Sequence record: NC_134264.1
Source of the DNA: Escherichia phage Lindwurm
DNA: 64,000 bases
Direction: 5' to 3' (one strand)
Shown: positions 7,450-14,343 of the stretch, one piece after another
Position numbering within the stretch: position 1 is the first letter of the stretch
How the letters are laid out: every line of letters begins with the position of its first letter
Notes under the pieces: generated by a model
Database searches by the model: none
What the model was told of the DNA's origin: nothing
What the model saw: the letters and a program-made list of their open reading frames with translations, nothing else
Program-made: the position numbers and the translations under genes

Positions 7450-8844
7450 ATGTCTTTACAACTATTACGTAATACTCGAATCTTCGTGTCTACGGTTAAG
7501 ACCGGTCATAATAAGACCAACACGCAAGAGATTCTAGTTCAGGATGATATTTCTTGGGGTCAGGACAGTAACTCAACAGATATTACTGTTAATGAAGCTG
7601 GTCCGCGTCCAATTCGTGGTTCTAAACGTTTTAATGACTCTTTAAACGCGGCTGAGTGGAGTTTCTCTACTTACATCCTGCCCTACATCAATAAAGAGGA
7701 TCAGAAGCAAATCGTTCCTGACTATATGTTATGGCATGCACTTTCTAGTGGTAAAGCTATTAACTTAGAAGGTAATACAGGGGCACACAATAATGAAGCT
7801 AACTTTATGGTTAACTTCAAAGATAACTCTTATCACGAGTTAGCAATGTTACATATTTATATTCTGACTGATAAAGCATGGAGTTATATCGATTCCTGTC
7901 AGATTAATCAGGCAGAAGTTAACGTTGATATCGAAGATATTGGCCGTGTAACTTGGTCTGGTAATGGTAACCAGCTTATTCCTCTGGATGAGCAACCATT
8001 TGACCCAGATGTAGTAGGTATTGATGATGAAACTTATATGACTATCCAGAGTTCTTATATTAAGAACAAACTTACTATCCTAAAAATTAAGGATATGGAT
8101 TCTGGTAAAGCATATGATATTCCTATTACTGGTGGTACTTTCACTATTAATAACAACATCACGTACCTAACCCCGAATATTATGTCTCGTGTTAATATTC
8201 CAATTGGTTCCTTTACTGGTGCTTTTGAATTAACTGGTTCATTAACTGCTTATCTGAATGATAAATCTCTTGGTTCTATGGAGCTATACAAAGATCTTAT
8301 CAAAACTCTGAAGGTAGTTAACCGCTTCGAAATTGCTCTAGTACTTGGTGGTGAATACGATGAAGAACGTCCTGCGGCTATTCTGGTAGCTAAACAAGCA
8401 CACGTTAATATTCCTACTATTGAAACTGATGATGTACTTGGTACTTCAGTAGAGTTTAAAGCTATTCCATCTGATCTGGATGCTGGTGATGAAGGTTACT
8501 TAGGCTTCTCTAGTAAATATACCAAAACAACTATTAATAACTTGATTGTTAATGGTGATGGTGCTACTAATGCTGTAACCGCAATTACTGTTAAATCTGC
8601 TGGTGATGCTACTACAGTAAACAACTCGGCTACTCTTCAAATGAGTGTTGAAGTTACTCCCTCTTCCGCAAAGAATAAGGAAGTTACTTGGGCTATCACT
8701 GCCGGTGATGCAGCTACTATCAGTGCAACCGGACTGTTAACAGCAGATGCTATTAAAACTGGTGCAGTTACTGTAGAAGCTACTGCTAAAGATGGTTCTG
8801 GAGTTAAAGGTACTAAACAGATTACTGTAACAGCAGGTGGTTAA
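7450..8844 (+). CDS. major tail tube protein with C-terminal Ig-like (Big_2-type) domain (464 aa, T5 pb6-like)
   Basis: Length; C-terminal TAITVKSAGDATTV...VTWAITAGDAATISATGLLTA...ITVTA Ig-like repeat. Confidence 0.85.
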   Translation: MSLQLLRNTRIFVSTVKTGHNKTNTQEILVQDDISWGQDSNSTDITVNEAGPRPIRGSKRFNDSLNAAEWSFSTYILPYINKEDQKQIVPDYMLWHALSSGKAINLEGNTGAHNNEANFMVNFKDNSYHELAMLHIYILTDKAWSYIDSCQINQAEVNVDIEDIGRVTWSGNGNQLIPLDEQPFDPDVVGIDDETYMTIQSSYIKNKLTILKIKDMDSGKAYDIPITGGTFTINNNITYLTPNIMSRVNIPIGSFTGAFELTGSLTAYLNDKSLGSMELYKDLIKTLKVVNRFEIALVLGGEYDEERPAAILVAKQAHVNIPTIETDDVLGTSVEFKAIPSDLDAGDEGYLGFSSKYTKTTINNLIVNGDGATNAVTAITVKSAGDATTVNNSATLQMSVEVTPSSAKNKEVTWAITAGDAATISATGLLTADAIKTGAVTVEATAKDGSGVKGTKQITVTAGG

Positions 8845-8848
8845 TTAA

Positions 8849-9748
8849 ATGTACTACTCTCTAATGAGAGAGTCAAAAGTTATAGTTGAGTATGATGGTA
8901 GGGTATTTCATTTTGATGCCCTATCAAACTATGATATACAGACTTCCTACGAGGAATTCAAGACTCTTCGTAGGACTGTTCATCGTAGAACTAACTATGC
9001 AGACTCTATTATAAATGCTCAAACTCCCTCTTCTATCTCTCTAGCAGTAAATTTCAGCAATACTCTTACGGAGGCTAACTTCTTTGAATGGTTAGGTTTT
9101 GATAGAAAAGGTAATACTTTCTTACTCCCACTATATAGCAATAATATTGAACCTATTATGTTCAATATCTATATAGTAAACAAAGATAATAACTGTGTAT
9201 ATTTTGAAAACTGCTATGTATCTACAGTAGATTTTTCTTTAGATAAGAATATACCAATTCTTAATGTTGGTATTGAGTCTGGGAAATTCTCAGAAGTATC
9301 TACATATAGAGAAGCAGCTTCTATTATACAGGGTGAAGTAATGTCTTACAGCCCAGTAATAGCTTCTACTAATGGTAGCATCTTACCCGGTCTTATTTCT
9401 GCCTCTTTATCTTTCCAACAGCAGTGCTCCTGGAGAGAGGATAAGAGTGTTTTTGATATAAATAAAATTTATAATAATAAAAGAGCCTATGTAACTGAAA
9501 TGAATGCTTCGGCAACCATTTCTCTGTACTACTTAAAACGTTTTGCAGGAGATATGGTTTATAATATAGAACCGGAGACAGATGTACCTTTAACGATAAG
9601 AAATAATAATATTTCTATAGATTTTCCTTCAGCACGTATTACAAAACGCCTAGAGTTCTCAGATGTGTATAGAGTTGAGTGGGATATTATACCTACTGCT
9701 TCTTCAGACCCAGTGAGAATAGATTTCTTTGGAGAAATTAAAAAATGA
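8849..9748 (+). CDS. tail protein (T5 p140-like, putative collar/tube-associated)
   Basis: 299 aa ORF between tail tube and chaperone genes; call by synteny. Confidence 0.45.
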   Translation: MYYSLMRESKVIVEYDGRVFHFDALSNYDIQTSYEEFKTLRRTVHRRTNYADSIINAQTPSSISLAVNFSNTLTEANFFEWLGFDRKGNTFLLPLYSNNIEPIMFNIYIVNKDNNCVYFENCYVSTVDFSLDKNIPILNVGIESGKFSEVSTYREAASIIQGEVMSYSPVIASTNGSILPGLISASLSFQQQCSWREDKSVFDINKIYNNKRAYVTEMNASATISLYYLKRFAGDMVYNIEPETDVPLTIRNNNISIDFPSARITKRLEFSDVYRVEWDIIPTASSDPVRIDFFGEIKK

Positions 9749-10149
9749 TTAATTTAAAAGATATTACTCTTGATACTCGTACTATTACCCTTTCCTACCC
9801 AGGTATGCCGAACTTTAAACTAGAACTTAACTATATGTCTCGTGCTACCTCTAAACGTGTTATTTCTTCTGCTAAACGCGATGAATGGGTTAACGGTACT
9901 TTGGTTCAGGTACAGGATGATGATAAGTTCATTGAAGCCTTCGTTGATGCTGCGATTAAAGGTTGGACTGGTTTGACTGTAGGTGACGTTGAAAAACTGA
10001 TGCTGATTGAAACAGATGCTGATCCTGAGACTGAAGTTCCTTTTAGTCGCGATAATGCTGTAATGCTTATGCAGAACTCTGCTGCGTTTGATTCTTGGAT
10101 CAACCAGACAGTGTTCCACTTAGACACTTTTCGTAGCTCAAAAGCGTAA
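9745..10149 (+). CDS. tail assembly chaperone (upstream ORF)
   Basis: Small acidic ORF directly upstream of tape measure; +1-frame ORF overlaps its 3' end. Confidence 0.55.
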   Translation: MINLKDITLDTRTITLSYPGMPNFKLELNYMSRATSKRVISSAKRDEWVNGTLVQVQDDDKFIEAFVDAAIKGWTGLTVGDVEKLMLIETDADPETEVPFSRDNAVMLMQNSAAFDSWINQTVFHLDTFRSSKA

Positions 10150-10210
10150 AGAACTTCTAGATGCTGTTGCTGATTTTGCAGATAAATGTATTAAAAGCTC
10201 AGCATCTAAA

Positions 10211-10579
10211 ATGACCAAACAACAATATTTAATACTTTGTGAGTCAATGGGTATAGAGCCGGATCCTAAGGCTATGCCCGTTGAACTTGAGGATTTTCCA
10301 CCTATTGTAGCTATTAGTATGAATATTTATAACAGTCTAATTGACTGTTTCATACCGGGTGACTTTCCTATTTTTATAGGTAAGGATAAGGCTGCATTAG
10401 GTGTTTTATTTGATATTTATGGGATTACTGATCCTATAGAAAAAGAATTTGTTCTACACATTATCAATATATTTGATGCTAAAGCTGTAGATGCTGCACG
10501 TAAACGTGCTGAGAAGCATAAACCGCAAAACGGAAGGATTCCTAACGTTAAGCCACATGCTAGGTCTCGCGCACGGTAA
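10211..10579 (+). CDS. tail assembly chaperone, downstream part (frame open from 10124; possible frameshift fusion)
   Basis: No Shine-Dalgarno before ATG 10211; reading frame is open from 10124 and overlaps 9745..10149 by 26 nt in +1 frame. Confidence 0.5.
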   Translation: MTKQQYLILCESMGIEPDPKAMPVELEDFPPIVAISMNIYNSLIDCFIPGDFPIFIGKDKAALGVLFDIYGITDPIEKEFVLHIINIFDAKAVDAARKRAEKHKPQNGRIPNVKPHARSRAR

Positions 10580-10614: not shown

Positions 10615-10645
10615 GGCTCTGGGTGATTTGCCCAGAGCCTTTTTT
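10615..10645 (+). terminator. rho-independent terminator upstream of tape measure gene
   Basis: GGCTCTGGG-TGATTTG-CCCAGAGCC followed by TTTTTT. Confidence 0.75.
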
Positions 10646-10660
10646 ATTGGGAAAAATAAA
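10640..10660 (+). promoter_or_regulatory. conserved post-terminator motif copy 2
   Basis: TTTTTTATTGGGAAAAATAAA, 2 nt before ATG 10663. Confidence 0.5.
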
Positions 10661-10662
10661 AC

Positions 10663-13600
10663 ATGACTGATAAGCTAATACGAGAATTACTAATAGACGT
10701 TAAACAGAAGGGGGCAACTCGTACTGCAAAGTCTATTGAAAACGTATCTGATGCGTTGGAAAATGCTGCTGCTGCTTCCGAACTGACAAATGAGCAGTTA
10801 GGTAAAATGCCCAAAACTCTTTATTCCATTGAGAGGGCAGCAGACAGAGCAGCGAAAAGTCTTACTAAAATGCAGGCAAGCAGAGGCATGCTTAGTGTTA
10901 CTAAATCTATAAATGATATAGGAGCTAAGTTAGATGATCTCGCTATTACAATGATTGAAGTAGCAGATAAGTTAGAAGTCGGATTTGATGGGGTTTCTAG
11001 ATCTGTTAAAACAATGGGTAATGATGTTGCAGCTGCAACAGAAAAAGTCCAGGATAGATTATACGATACTAATAGAGCATTAGGTGGCACAGCTAGAGGT
11101 TTTAACGATACTGCTGGTGCTGCTGGCAGAGCTTCTAGAGCTATTGGTAATACTTCTGGTTCCGCGCGCGGTGCAACTCGTGATTTTGCGGCAATGGCTA
11201 AGATCGGTGGTAGTTTACCTATTATGTATGCAGCTCTTGCTTCCAACATCTTCGTTTTGCAATCTGCATTCGAACAGCTTAAACTAGGTGATCAGTTAAA
11301 TCGTCTAGAAAAATTTGGTGTTATAGTAGGTACTCAGACAGGTACTCCTGTTCAGACCCTTGCTAGATCACTACAAGAAGCTGCTGGATATGCTATTTCT
11401 TTTGAGGAAGCAATGAGACAGGCATCTTCAGCATCTGCTTATGGATTTGATGCCGAACAACTTAATAAATTTGGTTTAGTAGCTCGTCGTGCGGCTGCTG
11501 TTCTTGGCGTTGATATGACTGATGCACTTAACCGTGTAATTAAGGGCGTATCTAAACAAGAAATCGAACTTCTGGATGAACTTGGTGTCACCATCCGTCT
11601 TAATGACGCATACGCTGATTATGTTAAACAGTTAAATGCTGCAAACACAGGTATAACATATAATGTTAATAGTCTTACCACTTTCCAGAAGCAACAAGCA
11701 TACGCTAACGCGGTAATTGCTGAATCTACTAAGCGGTTTGGCTACCTAGATGAAGTACTACGTGCAACTCCATGGGAGCAATTTGCTGCTAATGCAGATG
11801 CTGCACTAAGAAAAATACAACAAGCTGCTGCTAAGTATTTAGGGCCAGTAATTGATGCTATCAACACAGTATTTTATACATCTCAGGCTTCTATATCTGC
11901 TGAGGCAGCTAGAGCTCAAGAAAAAACTAATAGACAGATAGACCCTACCAACGTTGGTGCTGTTGCTTTAAGTTTAGCTGCTTCTGAAGAAGGCTATAAT
12001 AAAGCTCTAGATATGTATAAGGAATCTCTTGATAAGCGTAATAAGCTAAAATCTGAGTTCGATAAACGAATGGAACAAGCAGATTTCTATACAAAACTAG
12101 CTATACGTCAAGTTGGTGAAGGTATTCCTATTGGTCTTGCAGCAGCAGGTGCTTCGGAGGCCAATAAGCAATTTGTAGCAGAAACTGCAGCTATGGGTCT
12201 ACAAGTAACTAGACTTGGTAAGGAAGTAGAGGATTCTACAGAGAATCTCAATGCTTGGAAATCAGCGTATCAAGCTGCTGGAGCCGCTGCTGCAAAGGCT
12301 AGTCCAGAGTTTCAGAAGCAAATTAATCTACAGAGAGATACTACTGATCCTGATGCTGTATACGATTTTAACTCTACTGTATTAAAAGGACTAACTGAGC
12401 AGCAGAAAGCGTATAATCAGACTAAGAAAACTGCTAGTGACTTAGCTAATGATATACAGAACGTTGCTCAGAGTACAGATACTGCTGCTAAAACTAGTGC
12501 TACTTTAGCAGATGCTATAAAAAACATAGAATCTCTATCTCTAGGTACTGGTAAGAGTGCTGATGAGTACGTTAAAAATCTTAACCTAGGCTATAACACT
12601 CTGTCTGAAATGAAAACTGCGTCTCAGGCCTTATCTGAATATGTTAAACTAACTGGTAATGAAACTAAAAATCAGTTAGCAGTTCAACAGAAGATAGCTG
12701 ATGTATATAACCAAACTAAGGATAAAGAAAAAGCACAGGAAGCTGGTAGACGTTTAGAACTCCAACAGTTAGAAGAGCAAGAAACTGCTTTACGCCGTGT
12801 TCTTCAAACAAACCAGGGAAATAAAGCTGTTGAGAAAGAAATTGAAAAAATTCAGCTGGAGAAACTTAAACTCACCAATCAGGGTATGGAAGCTCAGAAG
12901 AAGGTCAAGGATTACACAGATAAAATCCTGGGTGTAGATCGTGAGATAGCTCTCTTAAATAACCGTACTATGACAGATACCCAGTACCGTCTAGCACAGT
13001 TAAATCTTGAATTGACCATTGAAAAAGAGAAGTATGAATGGTATACAAAACAAGCTGATAAGCAGAAAGAAGCTGAGCAATCTAGACGTGCTCAAGCACA
13101 GATAGAGCGTGAAATCTGGAAATTCCGCCAAGATCAGATTGCTTCAATGGCTGCTGGTAGAGAGGAAGAACAGCAAAGACAATTTACTGCTAAACCATTA
13201 ATGGGAAATGCGGAGCGCTTACAGGAACAGCTAAAATTATATGAAGACTTAAAGCAGAAAACATTAGGTAATGCTGCGGCACAAGCGGAATATAATAAAA
13301 AGATAGCTGAAACTAGGGCACAACTAGCAGGTTTAAGGGCACAGAGAAATGCGGAGATGCAAGCTTCTGTTGGATCTTCTTTAGGTGCTGTGTACACTCC
13401 TACAACTGGACTATCTGGAGAAGATAAAGATTTTGCTGATATGGGAAATAGAATGGCTTCTTATGATCAGGCAATTTCTAAACTATCTGAGTTAAATTCC
13501 GAAGCAACTGCTGTAGCTCAAAGCATGGGTAATTTAACCAATGCTATGATTCAGTTCTCTATGGGGTCTTTAGACACTACTTCCACGATCGCAGCAGGTA

Positions 13601-14343
13601 TGCAGACTGTGGCCTCTATGATTCAATATAGTACTAGTCAACAGGTTAGTGCAATTGATCAGGCTATTGCAGCAGAGCAGAAACGAGATGGTAAATCTGA
13701 AGCATCTAAAGCTAAACTGAAAAAGTTAGAAGCTGAAAAGCTGAAGATTCAACAAGACGCAGCTAAGAAGCAGATTATCATCCAAACTGCAGTAGCTGTA
13801 ATGCAGGCGGCAACAGCTGTTCCATACCCGTTCTCTATCCCTCTGATGGTAGCGGCAGGTTTAGCAGGTGCTCTGGCCCTCGCCCAAGCATCCTCTGCAT
13901 CGAGTATGTCGAGTATTGCTGATTCTGGAGCTGATACAACTAGTTACTTAACCTTAGGAGAGCGTCAAAAGAATATAGATGTGTCCATGTCTGCTAATGC
14001 AGGTGAACTATCTTATATTCGTGGCGATCAAGGTATAGGTAGTGCCAACTCTTTCGTTCCTCGTGCTGAGGGCGGTAATATGTACCCAGGGGTTAGTTAC
14101 CAAATGGGTGAACATGGTACAGAAGTAATTACCCCTATGGTTCCTATGAAAGCTACACCTAATGATGAGCTAAAAACCTCATCTAACTCAACTTCAGGAA
14201 GACCTATCATCTTGAATATTAGTGCTATGGATGCTGCAAGTTTTAGAGAGTTTGCTTCTAGTAATAGTGGTGCTCTAAGAGACGCAGTAGAATTAGCTCT
14301 GAATGAGAACGGTGCTAGTTTGAAAACATTAGGAAATTCTTAA
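10663..14343 (+). CDS. tape measure protein (1226 aa, T5 pb2-like)
   Basis: Length, extended coiled-coil/Ala-Gln-rich composition, hydrophobic segment near C-terminus, position. Confidence 0.9.
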   Translation: MTDKLIRELLIDVKQKGATRTAKSIENVSDALENAAAASELTNEQLGKMPKTLYSIERAADRAAKSLTKMQASRGMLSVTKSINDIGAKLDDLAITMIEVADKLEVGFDGVSRSVKTMGNDVAAATEKVQDRLYDTNRALGGTARGFNDTAGAAGRASRAIGNTSGSARGATRDFAAMAKIGGSLPIMYAALASNIFVLQSAFEQLKLGDQLNRLEKFGVIVGTQTGTPVQTLARSLQEAAGYAISFEEAMRQASSASAYGFDAEQLNKFGLVARRAAAVLGVDMTDALNRVIKGVSKQEIELLDELGVTIRLNDAYADYVKQLNAANTGITYNVNSLTTFQKQQAYANAVIAESTKRFGYLDEVLRATPWEQFAANADAALRKIQQAAAKYLGPVIDAINTVFYTSQASISAEAARAQEKTNRQIDPTNVGAVALSLAASEEGYNKALDMYKESLDKRNKLKSEFDKRMEQADFYTKLAIRQVGEGIPIGLAAAGASEANKQFVAETAAMGLQVTRLGKEVEDSTENLNAWKSAYQAAGAAAAKASPEFQKQINLQRDTTDPDAVYDFNSTVLKGLTEQQKAYNQTKKTASDLANDIQNVAQSTDTAAKTSATLADAIKNIESLSLGTGKSADEYVKNLNLGYNTLSEMKTASQALSEYVKLTGNETKNQLAVQQKIADVYNQTKDKEKAQEAGRRLELQQLEEQETALRRVLQTNQGNKAVEKEIEKIQLEKLKLTNQGMEAQKKVKDYTDKILGVDREIALLNNRTMTDTQYRLAQLNLELTIEKEKYEWYTKQADKQKEAEQSRRAQAQIEREIWKFRQDQIASMAAGREEEQQRQFTAKPLMGNAERLQEQLKLYEDLKQKTLGNAAAQAEYNKKIAETRAQLAGLRAQRNAEMQASVGSSLGAVYTPTTGLSGEDKDFADMGNRMASYDQAISKLSELNSEATAVAQSMGNLTNAMIQFSMGSLDTTSTIAAGMQTVASMIQYSTSQQVSAIDQAIAAEQKRDGKSEASKAKLKKLEAEKLKIQQDAAKKQIIIQTAVAVMQAATAVPYPFSIPLMVAAGLAGALALAQASSASSMSSIADSGADTTSYLTLGERQKNIDVSMSANAGELSYIRGDQGIGSANSFVPRAEGGNMYPGVSYQMGEHGTEVITPMVPMKATPNDELKTSSNSTSGRPIILNISAMDAASFREFASSNSGALRDAVELALNENGASLKTLGNS

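Follow-up and report, generated by a model that had tools for sequence, protein, structure and literature searches.

A putative +1 ribosomal frameshift at UUU_CGU in the tail chaperone genes of Escherichia phage Lindwurm and its T5-like relatives

In a stretch of 64,000 nucleotides (nt) from Escherichia phage Lindwurm (NC_134264.1), analysed here as a whole and called the window, two small open reading frames (ORFs) directly precede the tape-measure gene, and they raise the question of how the second of them is translated. ORF1 (9745..10149, + strand; 134 amino acids, aa) is a predicted G-like tape-measure/tail assembly chaperone and a homologue of T5.143, whereas ORF2, as usually annotated from ATG 10211 (10211..10579, + strand; 122 aa), is a homologue of T5.142; this equivalence is taken from the notes of the Slocum record. 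The original prediction, made from the letters of the window, had seen in the two ORFs a chaperone pair of the G/GT type, whose second member would be reached by a programmed shift in the +1 (or -2) direction and not by the usual -1 shift. The comparison of T5-like phages reported below makes it probable that ORF1 and the +1 ORF are joined by a +1 shift at UUU_CGU into a G-T fusion of the lambda G/GT type.

The reading frames of the locus were examined first for the room that they leave for such a shift. ORF1 runs from ATG 9745 to TAA 10147-10149, and the +1 frame is open from 10124, after TAG 10121-10123, to the stop at 10577-10579, so that the coordinates of ORF1 and the 26-nt overlap of the original prediction both hold. 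Any shift between the two frames would fall in this overlap (10124..10149, + strand), in which both frames are open. The -1 frame is closed, as had been claimed, by stops at 10134-10136 and 10158-10160 that leave only 7 codons open. Within the +1 frame, the first ATG, GTG or TTG after the 10121-10123 stop is ATG 10211, and the absence of a Shine-Dalgarno (SD) sequence before it was borne out, as the 18 upstream bases AAAAGCTCAGCATCTAAA contain no GGAG, GAGG or AGGA. The string CTC AAA AGC G, to which attention had been drawn, is indeed present in the overlap; it arises, however, when 10137-10146 is read in the -1 frame, and the conserved element is a different one.

The relatives were collected with tblastn, after which their loci were fetched; scans of viral contigs with single proteins yielded few loci. 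A tblastn search with the hypothetical fusion matched 908 phage records, and among the matches listed that cover both ORFs, all were in two pieces. The T5-type set comprised 18 isolate loci and one viral contig, 19 in all, from at least 14 genus-level lineages, including Tequintavirus, Epseptimavirus, Sugarlandvirus, Priunavirus, Novosibvirus, Hongcheonvirus, Myunavirus, Pogseptimavirus, Cetovirus and Vipunavirus as well as unclassified Pantoea, Enterobacter, Serratia and Vibrio phages, and the pairwise identity of ORF1 among them goes down to 19%. Conservation of the overlap and of the +1 relation, which the original prediction had named as a check on itself, was found throughout: ORF2 stands in the +1 frame in 19/19 loci, in all of which a stop ends the -1 frame after 6-35 codons. 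With stop triplets occurring at 0.063-0.069 per codon in the Lindwurm genome, the recurrence of an overlapping open +1 frame in 19 loci is far beyond chance.

An in-frame TTT_CG[T/A] was found inside the overlap in all 19 loci, and in Lindwurm it is the TTT_CGT at 10129..10134 (+ strand), which encodes Phe129-Arg130 in the 0 frame and which we propose as the +1 shift site. These two residues are also the last conserved ones of ORF1, the 0-frame tail beyond them being variable and 0-10 residues long in the 19 loci. The overlap is only 14 nt long in Pectobacterium phage My1 (c tcc TTT CGT taa) and in Vibrio phage D378 (c aac TTT CGT taa). The Phe codon of the site is TTT in 18/18 loci, whereas two further Phe columns that are conserved in ORF1 have TTT:TTC ratios of 10:7 and 12:6. 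The Arg codon is CGT (14) or CGA (4) and never AGR. For comparison, TTT makes up 54% of the Phe codons and CGT and CGA together 55% of the Arg codons in the long ORFs of the window. By these codon counts, TTT_CGN is conserved beyond the need of the encoded Phe-Arg. As a separate observation, in-frame TTT_CGN dicodons are rarer than expected in the 45 long ORFs of the window on both strands (5 observed vs 11 expected), a scarcity that would fit avoidance of a shift-prone sequence, although the numbers are small.

A natural contrast to these loci was found in marine relatives. In the IMG/VR contig L016, the homologue of the T domain, the coding part downstream of the shift, occupies the -1 frame, and the Phe codon that corresponds to the shift site lies in the canonical heptamer A_AAT_TTT. 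A metagenome scan with ORF1 of this contig gave 80 marine loci, and hidden Markov models of the G and T domains placed the two domains in a total of 100 loci. Of these, 33 (19 clusters at <90% identity), which comprise T5-like isolates of enterics and Vibrio together with marine contigs, have the T domain in the +1 frame, and the other 67 (39 clusters at <90% identity) have it in the -1 frame; clusters are given beside loci because the counts include related sequences and the lineages are not fully independent. All 33 of the +1 loci carry TTT_CG[T/A/C] at the invariant Phe, the codon after TTT being CGT in 12, CGA in 4 and CGC in 1 of the clusters, plus My1 and D378 with CGT. The -1 loci carry A_AAT_TTT (63), A_AAT_TTC (1) or, one codon upstream, G_GGA_AAC (3), and TTT_CGN in 0/67. 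The residue after the Phe is Thr, Ser, Gln or Asn in the -1 loci, and Arg stands there only in the +1 lineages. The motif thus correlates perfectly with the frame of the T domain across the 100 loci; Fisher's test gave p = 8.7e-13 even with My1 and D378 mis-scored as 'other', the script having taken the TTC past the stop.

The marine +1 loci form a subgroup with 0-frame tails of 15-18 codons after the Arg, which still carries AAC TTT CGT or AAT TTT CGC. Since this subgroup joins the marine -1 clade in a rough neighbour-joining tree, at least one switch in the direction of slippage would have taken place at this codon. Synteny is kept in the marine contigs, where the pair follows a tail terminator gene or a p140-like gene and is followed by an ORF of >465 aa. 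On the wider reading that UUU_CGN is a +1 recoding signal on bacterial ribosomes, as on eukaryotic and, by proposal, archaeal ones, that works without a rare A-site codon and was exchanged at least once in T5-family phages for the canonical -1 heptamer A_AAU_UUU at the same Phe codon, we are cautiously favourable, somewhat less so than on the shift itself.

Apart from this comparison, the marine sequences gave two observations in their own right. The contigs L028-L107 represent a large group, uncultivated so far, with T5-type chaperone genes (e.g. Ga0255758_10000071, 95.8 kilobases, kb), with A_AAT_TTT mostly, G_GGA_AAC in a few and TTT_CGN in one subclade. In the -1 loci, the 0-frame tail after the heptamer is strikingly constant and reads ACN NNN A[GA]C AAG TAG.

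Several results weigh against a shift at UUU_CGU, besides the partial relatedness of the loci counted above. No SD-like stimulator was found upstream of TTT_CGT, either in CACTTAGACACT of Lindwurm or as an element conserved across the family, and a downstream structure, likewise sought, was not conserved across the family; folding upstream of the shift site was unremarkable. The usual stimulator, a slow A-site codon, is not evident either, because CGU is common both in E. coli (20.2 per 1000 codons; PMC3498833, Table 1) and in Lindwurm (CGT at 21.5 per 1000 codons in the genes of the window), and a rare A-site codon was found only in the Vibrio phages, as CGA. ORF1 had no significant chaperone match in Pfam, NCBIfam or PDB sequence searches. 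An internal start with an SD-like sequence is present in Shiner, Slocum, My1, PSTCR5 and RP7, and in such lineages a free T protein may also be made. Moreover, a later paper from the centre that sequenced Salmonella phage Shivani, discussed below, describes the T5 and Sugarland chaperones as having no predicted frameshift signal (PMC6256483).

The last two of these points speak for one alternative, namely that there is no recoding and ORF2 is translated independently, from ATG 10211 or by re-initiation after TAA 10147, and the fact that most GenBank records hold two separate coding sequences (CDS) for ORF1 and ORF2 agrees with it. We nevertheless consider it unlikely, as the evidence from the region upstream of ATG 10211 speaks against it. 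In all lineages, the protein read in the +1 frame can be aligned from the shift site on, also in the part that precedes any start codon. The Met of ATG 10211 falls in a hydrophobic column that holds V, I, L or F in other lineages, with no conserved start. In Enterobacter phage KKP_3711 and contig L018, no ATG, GTG or TTG was found before the conserved motif Y-L-x-x-C-E-x-x-G-x-E-P-D-P, and in AAS21 the sole start codon is a TTG upstream of the shift site without an SD sequence. All of the 33 loci with a +1-frame T domain keep that frame open as far back as ORF1.

Selection on the same region was assessed on the 27 codons from the site to ATG 10211, for which the window was set against Epseptimavirus Stitch. 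The +1 frame shows 7 synonymous codon changes and 1 non-synonymous change, whereas the other two frames gave synonymous to non-synonymous ratios of 0:9 and 0:8. This pattern, confined to the +1 frame, indicates purifying selection on these codons in that frame. As no start codon precedes them there, ribosomes must enter the frame from ORF1. Independent initiation would also leave unexplained why TTT_CGN goes with the +1 frame and an X_XXY_YYZ heptamer with the -1 frame. In lineages with SD-like sequences it may coexist with the shift. In Lindwurm itself, ATG 10211 without an SD sequence is further preceded by a hairpin (10158..10208, + strand; -21.8 kcal/mol, z -2.6) with a perfect 9-bp stem, UAGAUGCUG/CAGCAUCUA, whose 3' arm ends 2 nt before the ATG. 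This hairpin, which might suppress internal initiation or affect the shift, is kept in Epseptimavirus Stitch, partly kept in DU_PP_V and absent in the other lineages.

If a shift takes place, its site could also be sought in the A-run TCA_AAA_G at 10138..10144 (+ strand), by a -2 shift or by a +1 shift of tRNA-Lys. This site is implied by a frameshift that is already annotated, the two-piece joined CDS of Salmonella phage Shivani (KP143763; AJA73579.1 / YP_009194776.1). An exact look-up of all possible junctions placed its product, a 277-aa 'tape measure chaperone' reading ...TFRSSK/KRKELL... (the stroke marks the junction), exactly at a -2 shift on TCA_AAA_G. The join concerns the same two Tequintavirus genes and gives the same length of 277 aa, but it lies 4 codons downstream of the conserved TTT_CGT; it is the annotator's placement, the evidence for which is unstated, and the genome announcement is silent on it. 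For the window, T5 and Shivani (AAA_G), a re-pairing from AAA to AAG is plausible on chemical grounds, and the A-run is semi-conserved in enterobacterial lineages. The run is, however, missing from AAS21 and Proteus and from every +1 locus of Vibrio or marine origin, and in Shiner and KKP3711 a T follows AAA, which breaks the re-pairing. A shift on the run would be open to a few lineages only. In My1 and D378 it lies outside the overlap, as ORF1 ends right after TTT CGT, and these 14-nt overlaps, which hold little more than TTT CGT TAA, exclude the A-run as a family-wide site. The A-run is therefore not favoured, and we regard it as quite improbable for Lindwurm.

Slippage on the short T-run CTTTTC, either of the ribosome by -2 or of the polymerase during transcription, would give ...TFFVAQ... 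or an edited fraction of the mRNA and is very improbable: a -2 shift leads to the frame that a +1 shift also reaches, so that the two are indistinguishable by sequence, and the window does have four consecutive T (10128-10131), but the base before TTT varies (C/T/G/A), so that -2 re-pairing is not conserved, and most lineages have only three T, whereas the runs known to support polymerase slippage are far longer than that.

For the favoured +1 shift at UUU_CGU, the following course is proposed. Most ribosomes would terminate at TAA 10147 and release the 134-aa G protein. In a minority of them, tRNA-Phe would sit in the P site on UUU 10129-10131 with CGU 10132-10134 in the A site, re-pair from UUU to the overlapping UUC (10130-10132) and let decoding restart at GUA 10133-10135. 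The fusion, join(9745..10131,10133..10579), would then be 277 aa long, with the junction ...HLDTF/VAQKRKELL... and the predicted peptide DTFVAQKRKELL across the +1 junction at UUU_C. Its T domain (10133..10579, + strand; 148 aa), the +1-frame part after the shift, matches PHROG 3914 (E 1.2e-56) and is alignable across lineages. We infer that the shift is ribosomal and in the +1 rather than the -2 direction, and that its efficiency is low, which would suit a G:GT ratio such as the 30:1 of lambda (PMC5009743). The G and G-T products would presumably act in tail assembly as gpG and gpGT of lambda do. It is conceivable, as a speculation, that CGU and CGA are both decoded slowly, since one inosine tRNA serves the two codons by wobble pairing. 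A +1 frameshift of the prfB type was also considered and rejected for this site, as the A-site codon is CGT, the stop comes 5 codons further on and CACTTAGACACT has no SD-like run.

Next, the assignment of the two ORFs as tail chaperones was examined. ORF1 matches PHROG 313, 'tail assembly chaperone', with E 4.9e-34 at profile positions 12-141, and ORF2 matches the same profile at positions 170-258 of its 258 positions; PHROG 3914 is also labelled tail assembly chaperone. The span of PHROG 313 over both ORFs was not counted as independent evidence for a fusion, because it may derive from joined annotations of the Shivani type. Phage_TAC_5 matches weakly in 3/19 ORF1 homologues (best E 0.008), and an AlphaFold model of ORF1 from a single sequence was uninformative, with a predicted local distance difference test (pLDDT) value of 34. 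As neither sequence nor fold gave ORF1 a tie to established chaperone families, its chaperone label rests on position, on the PHROG matches and on the recoding architecture. The features of a G/GT pair that were found are two small ORFs flanked directly by tail tube genes on one side and the tape-measure gene on the other, an overlap in another frame, a second ORF without a conserved start or SD sequence, a conserved slippery sequence in the overlap, and coding before any start. Position, frame relation, the absent initiation signal and the comparative data together support the view that ORF1 and ORF2 would form a G/GT-type tail chaperone pair expressed by a forward frameshift, as the original prediction had it.

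The proposed shift was then compared with known systems. The conserved tail-assembly-chaperone frameshift is exemplified by lambda gpG/gpGT (Levin 1993; Xu, Hendrix & Duda 2004; summarised in PMC5009743). As in lambda, two overlapping ORFs lie just upstream of the tape-measure gene, the second is without a start of its own, only a few codons would separate the shift from the stop of the first ORF, and much G and little G-T are expected. Unlike lambda, which shifts by -1 at G_GGA_AAG, the Lindwurm pair would shift by +1 at UUU_CGU, and no significant sequence similarity of it to established chaperone families was found. For phage Mu, the gpGT shift is described as -2 with an estimated efficiency of ~2.2% (cited in PMC3498833); it shares with the present locus a non-canonical direction in a tail chaperone pair and the relative frame reached, but no -2 compatible re-pairing is conserved in the T5-type loci.

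Similar in signal and gene context is the TTT-CGC proposed as the +1 signal of the chaperone pair in haloarchaeal myoviruses of the HF1 group (PMC7230728). The gene position, the need for +1 and the TTT_CGN near the stop of the first CDS are the same, and both shifts are predicted only. The HF1 group has an archaeal host in which TTT is rare, and six close genomes were compared (PMC7230728), whereas the T5-type evidence spans a whole family of bacterial viruses and has the -1 sister group as a natural control.

Identical in the core motif are the +1 site of influenza A PA-X, UCC_UUU_CGU (PMC5009743, PMC3498833), and the UUU_CGN motif of amalgaviruses (PMC5052127), in both of which, as proposed here, the P-site tRNA-Phe moves from UUU to UUC; My1 and DU_PP_V even carry TCC TTT CGT. 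Those shifts take place on eukaryotic ribosomes with CGU as a rare codon, whereas in the T5-type loci CGU is common and the E-site codon is variable, so that codon rarity cannot be the stimulator there. For bacterial ribosomes, UUU_Ynn is described as especially +1-prone, an example being YopN-TyeA of Yersinia (PMC5009743). That case resembles the present one in the shift-prone tetranucleotide, in having no adjacent stop codon and in fusing two adjacent ORFs; it belongs to a different gene family, and a CGN codon in the A site is not described as required (PMC5009743). In our literature search, no paper was found among those searchable that describes a frameshift in the T5 chaperones or UUU_CGU as a site in T5.

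By this comparison, the T5 family would be a bacterial addition to the known +1 UUU_CGN tail chaperone frameshifts, +1 being the rarer form. The tail of T5, a classical model phage, is under structural study, and T5.142 and T5.143 are mostly annotated as unrelated hypothetical proteins; the assignment of the site would give a corrected 277-aa product to annotate in ~900 database genomes. A synonymous change of TTT to TTC would offer a simple handle on the role of G-T in tail-length determination, and the locus would provide a bacterial system for the UUU_CGN motif of influenza and amalgaviruses in a host where CGU is not rare. If the wider reading is true, nature supplies a matched pair of signals, one +1 and one -1, with an identical G:GT output, and the sister lineages with a -1 heptamer at the same codon allow a natural comparison of how two slippage directions are tuned to one task.

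The surroundings of the pair are those of a Tequintavirus, to which the Lindwurm window belongs. The 1.1 kb around the chaperone pair is 99.4% identical to Escherichia phage Stokescottia, and this region has nucleotide matches at >=80% identity in 444 phage records. The gene order is pb6-like, p140-like, ORF1, ORF2 and tape measure. The pb6-like tube protein with a Big_2 domain (7450..8844) lies upstream of the gene of the p140-like baseplate tube protein (8849..9748, + strand; Pfam PF23779, E 1.1e-139), which in turn precedes ORF1, and the homologue of the tape-measure/pore-forming tail tip protein pb2 (10663..14343, + strand; 1226 aa) was identified from the annotations of relatives. The start of ORF1 overlaps the stop of the p140-like gene (ATGA, 9745-9748), a usual sign of translational coupling in a tail operon. 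Between the chaperone pair and the tape-measure gene stands an intrinsic terminator (10615..10649, + strand) with an 11-bp stem, 7 GC pairs and a T-run, which suggests either attenuated read-through into the tape-measure gene or the transcript end of the upstream tail genes; terminators are annotated at the equivalent junction in the T5, Shiner, PR1 and Slocum records. No tRNA genes were found in the 64-kb window.

A few records stood out during the searches. In L091 (AACY023378266.1), ORF1 is broken after ~77 profile positions and resumes in another frame, so that G and T appear in the same frame; the break is probably a sequencing or assembly indel in this 1.4-kb read-derived contig. A homologue search of the protein collection with the fusion returned 0 matches, yet by exact look-up it contains relatives in clusters of 117 and 193, and the same collection clusters the 134-aa chaperone with 299-aa p140-like proteins under a 299-aa representative, an odd clustering. 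Finally, PQ773600.1 (41 kb), named 'Corynebacterium phage CPphiVTCCBPA_418', carries T5-type tail genes with scores nearly identical to those of Salmonella and Escherichia T5-like phages, which looks like contamination or mislabelling.

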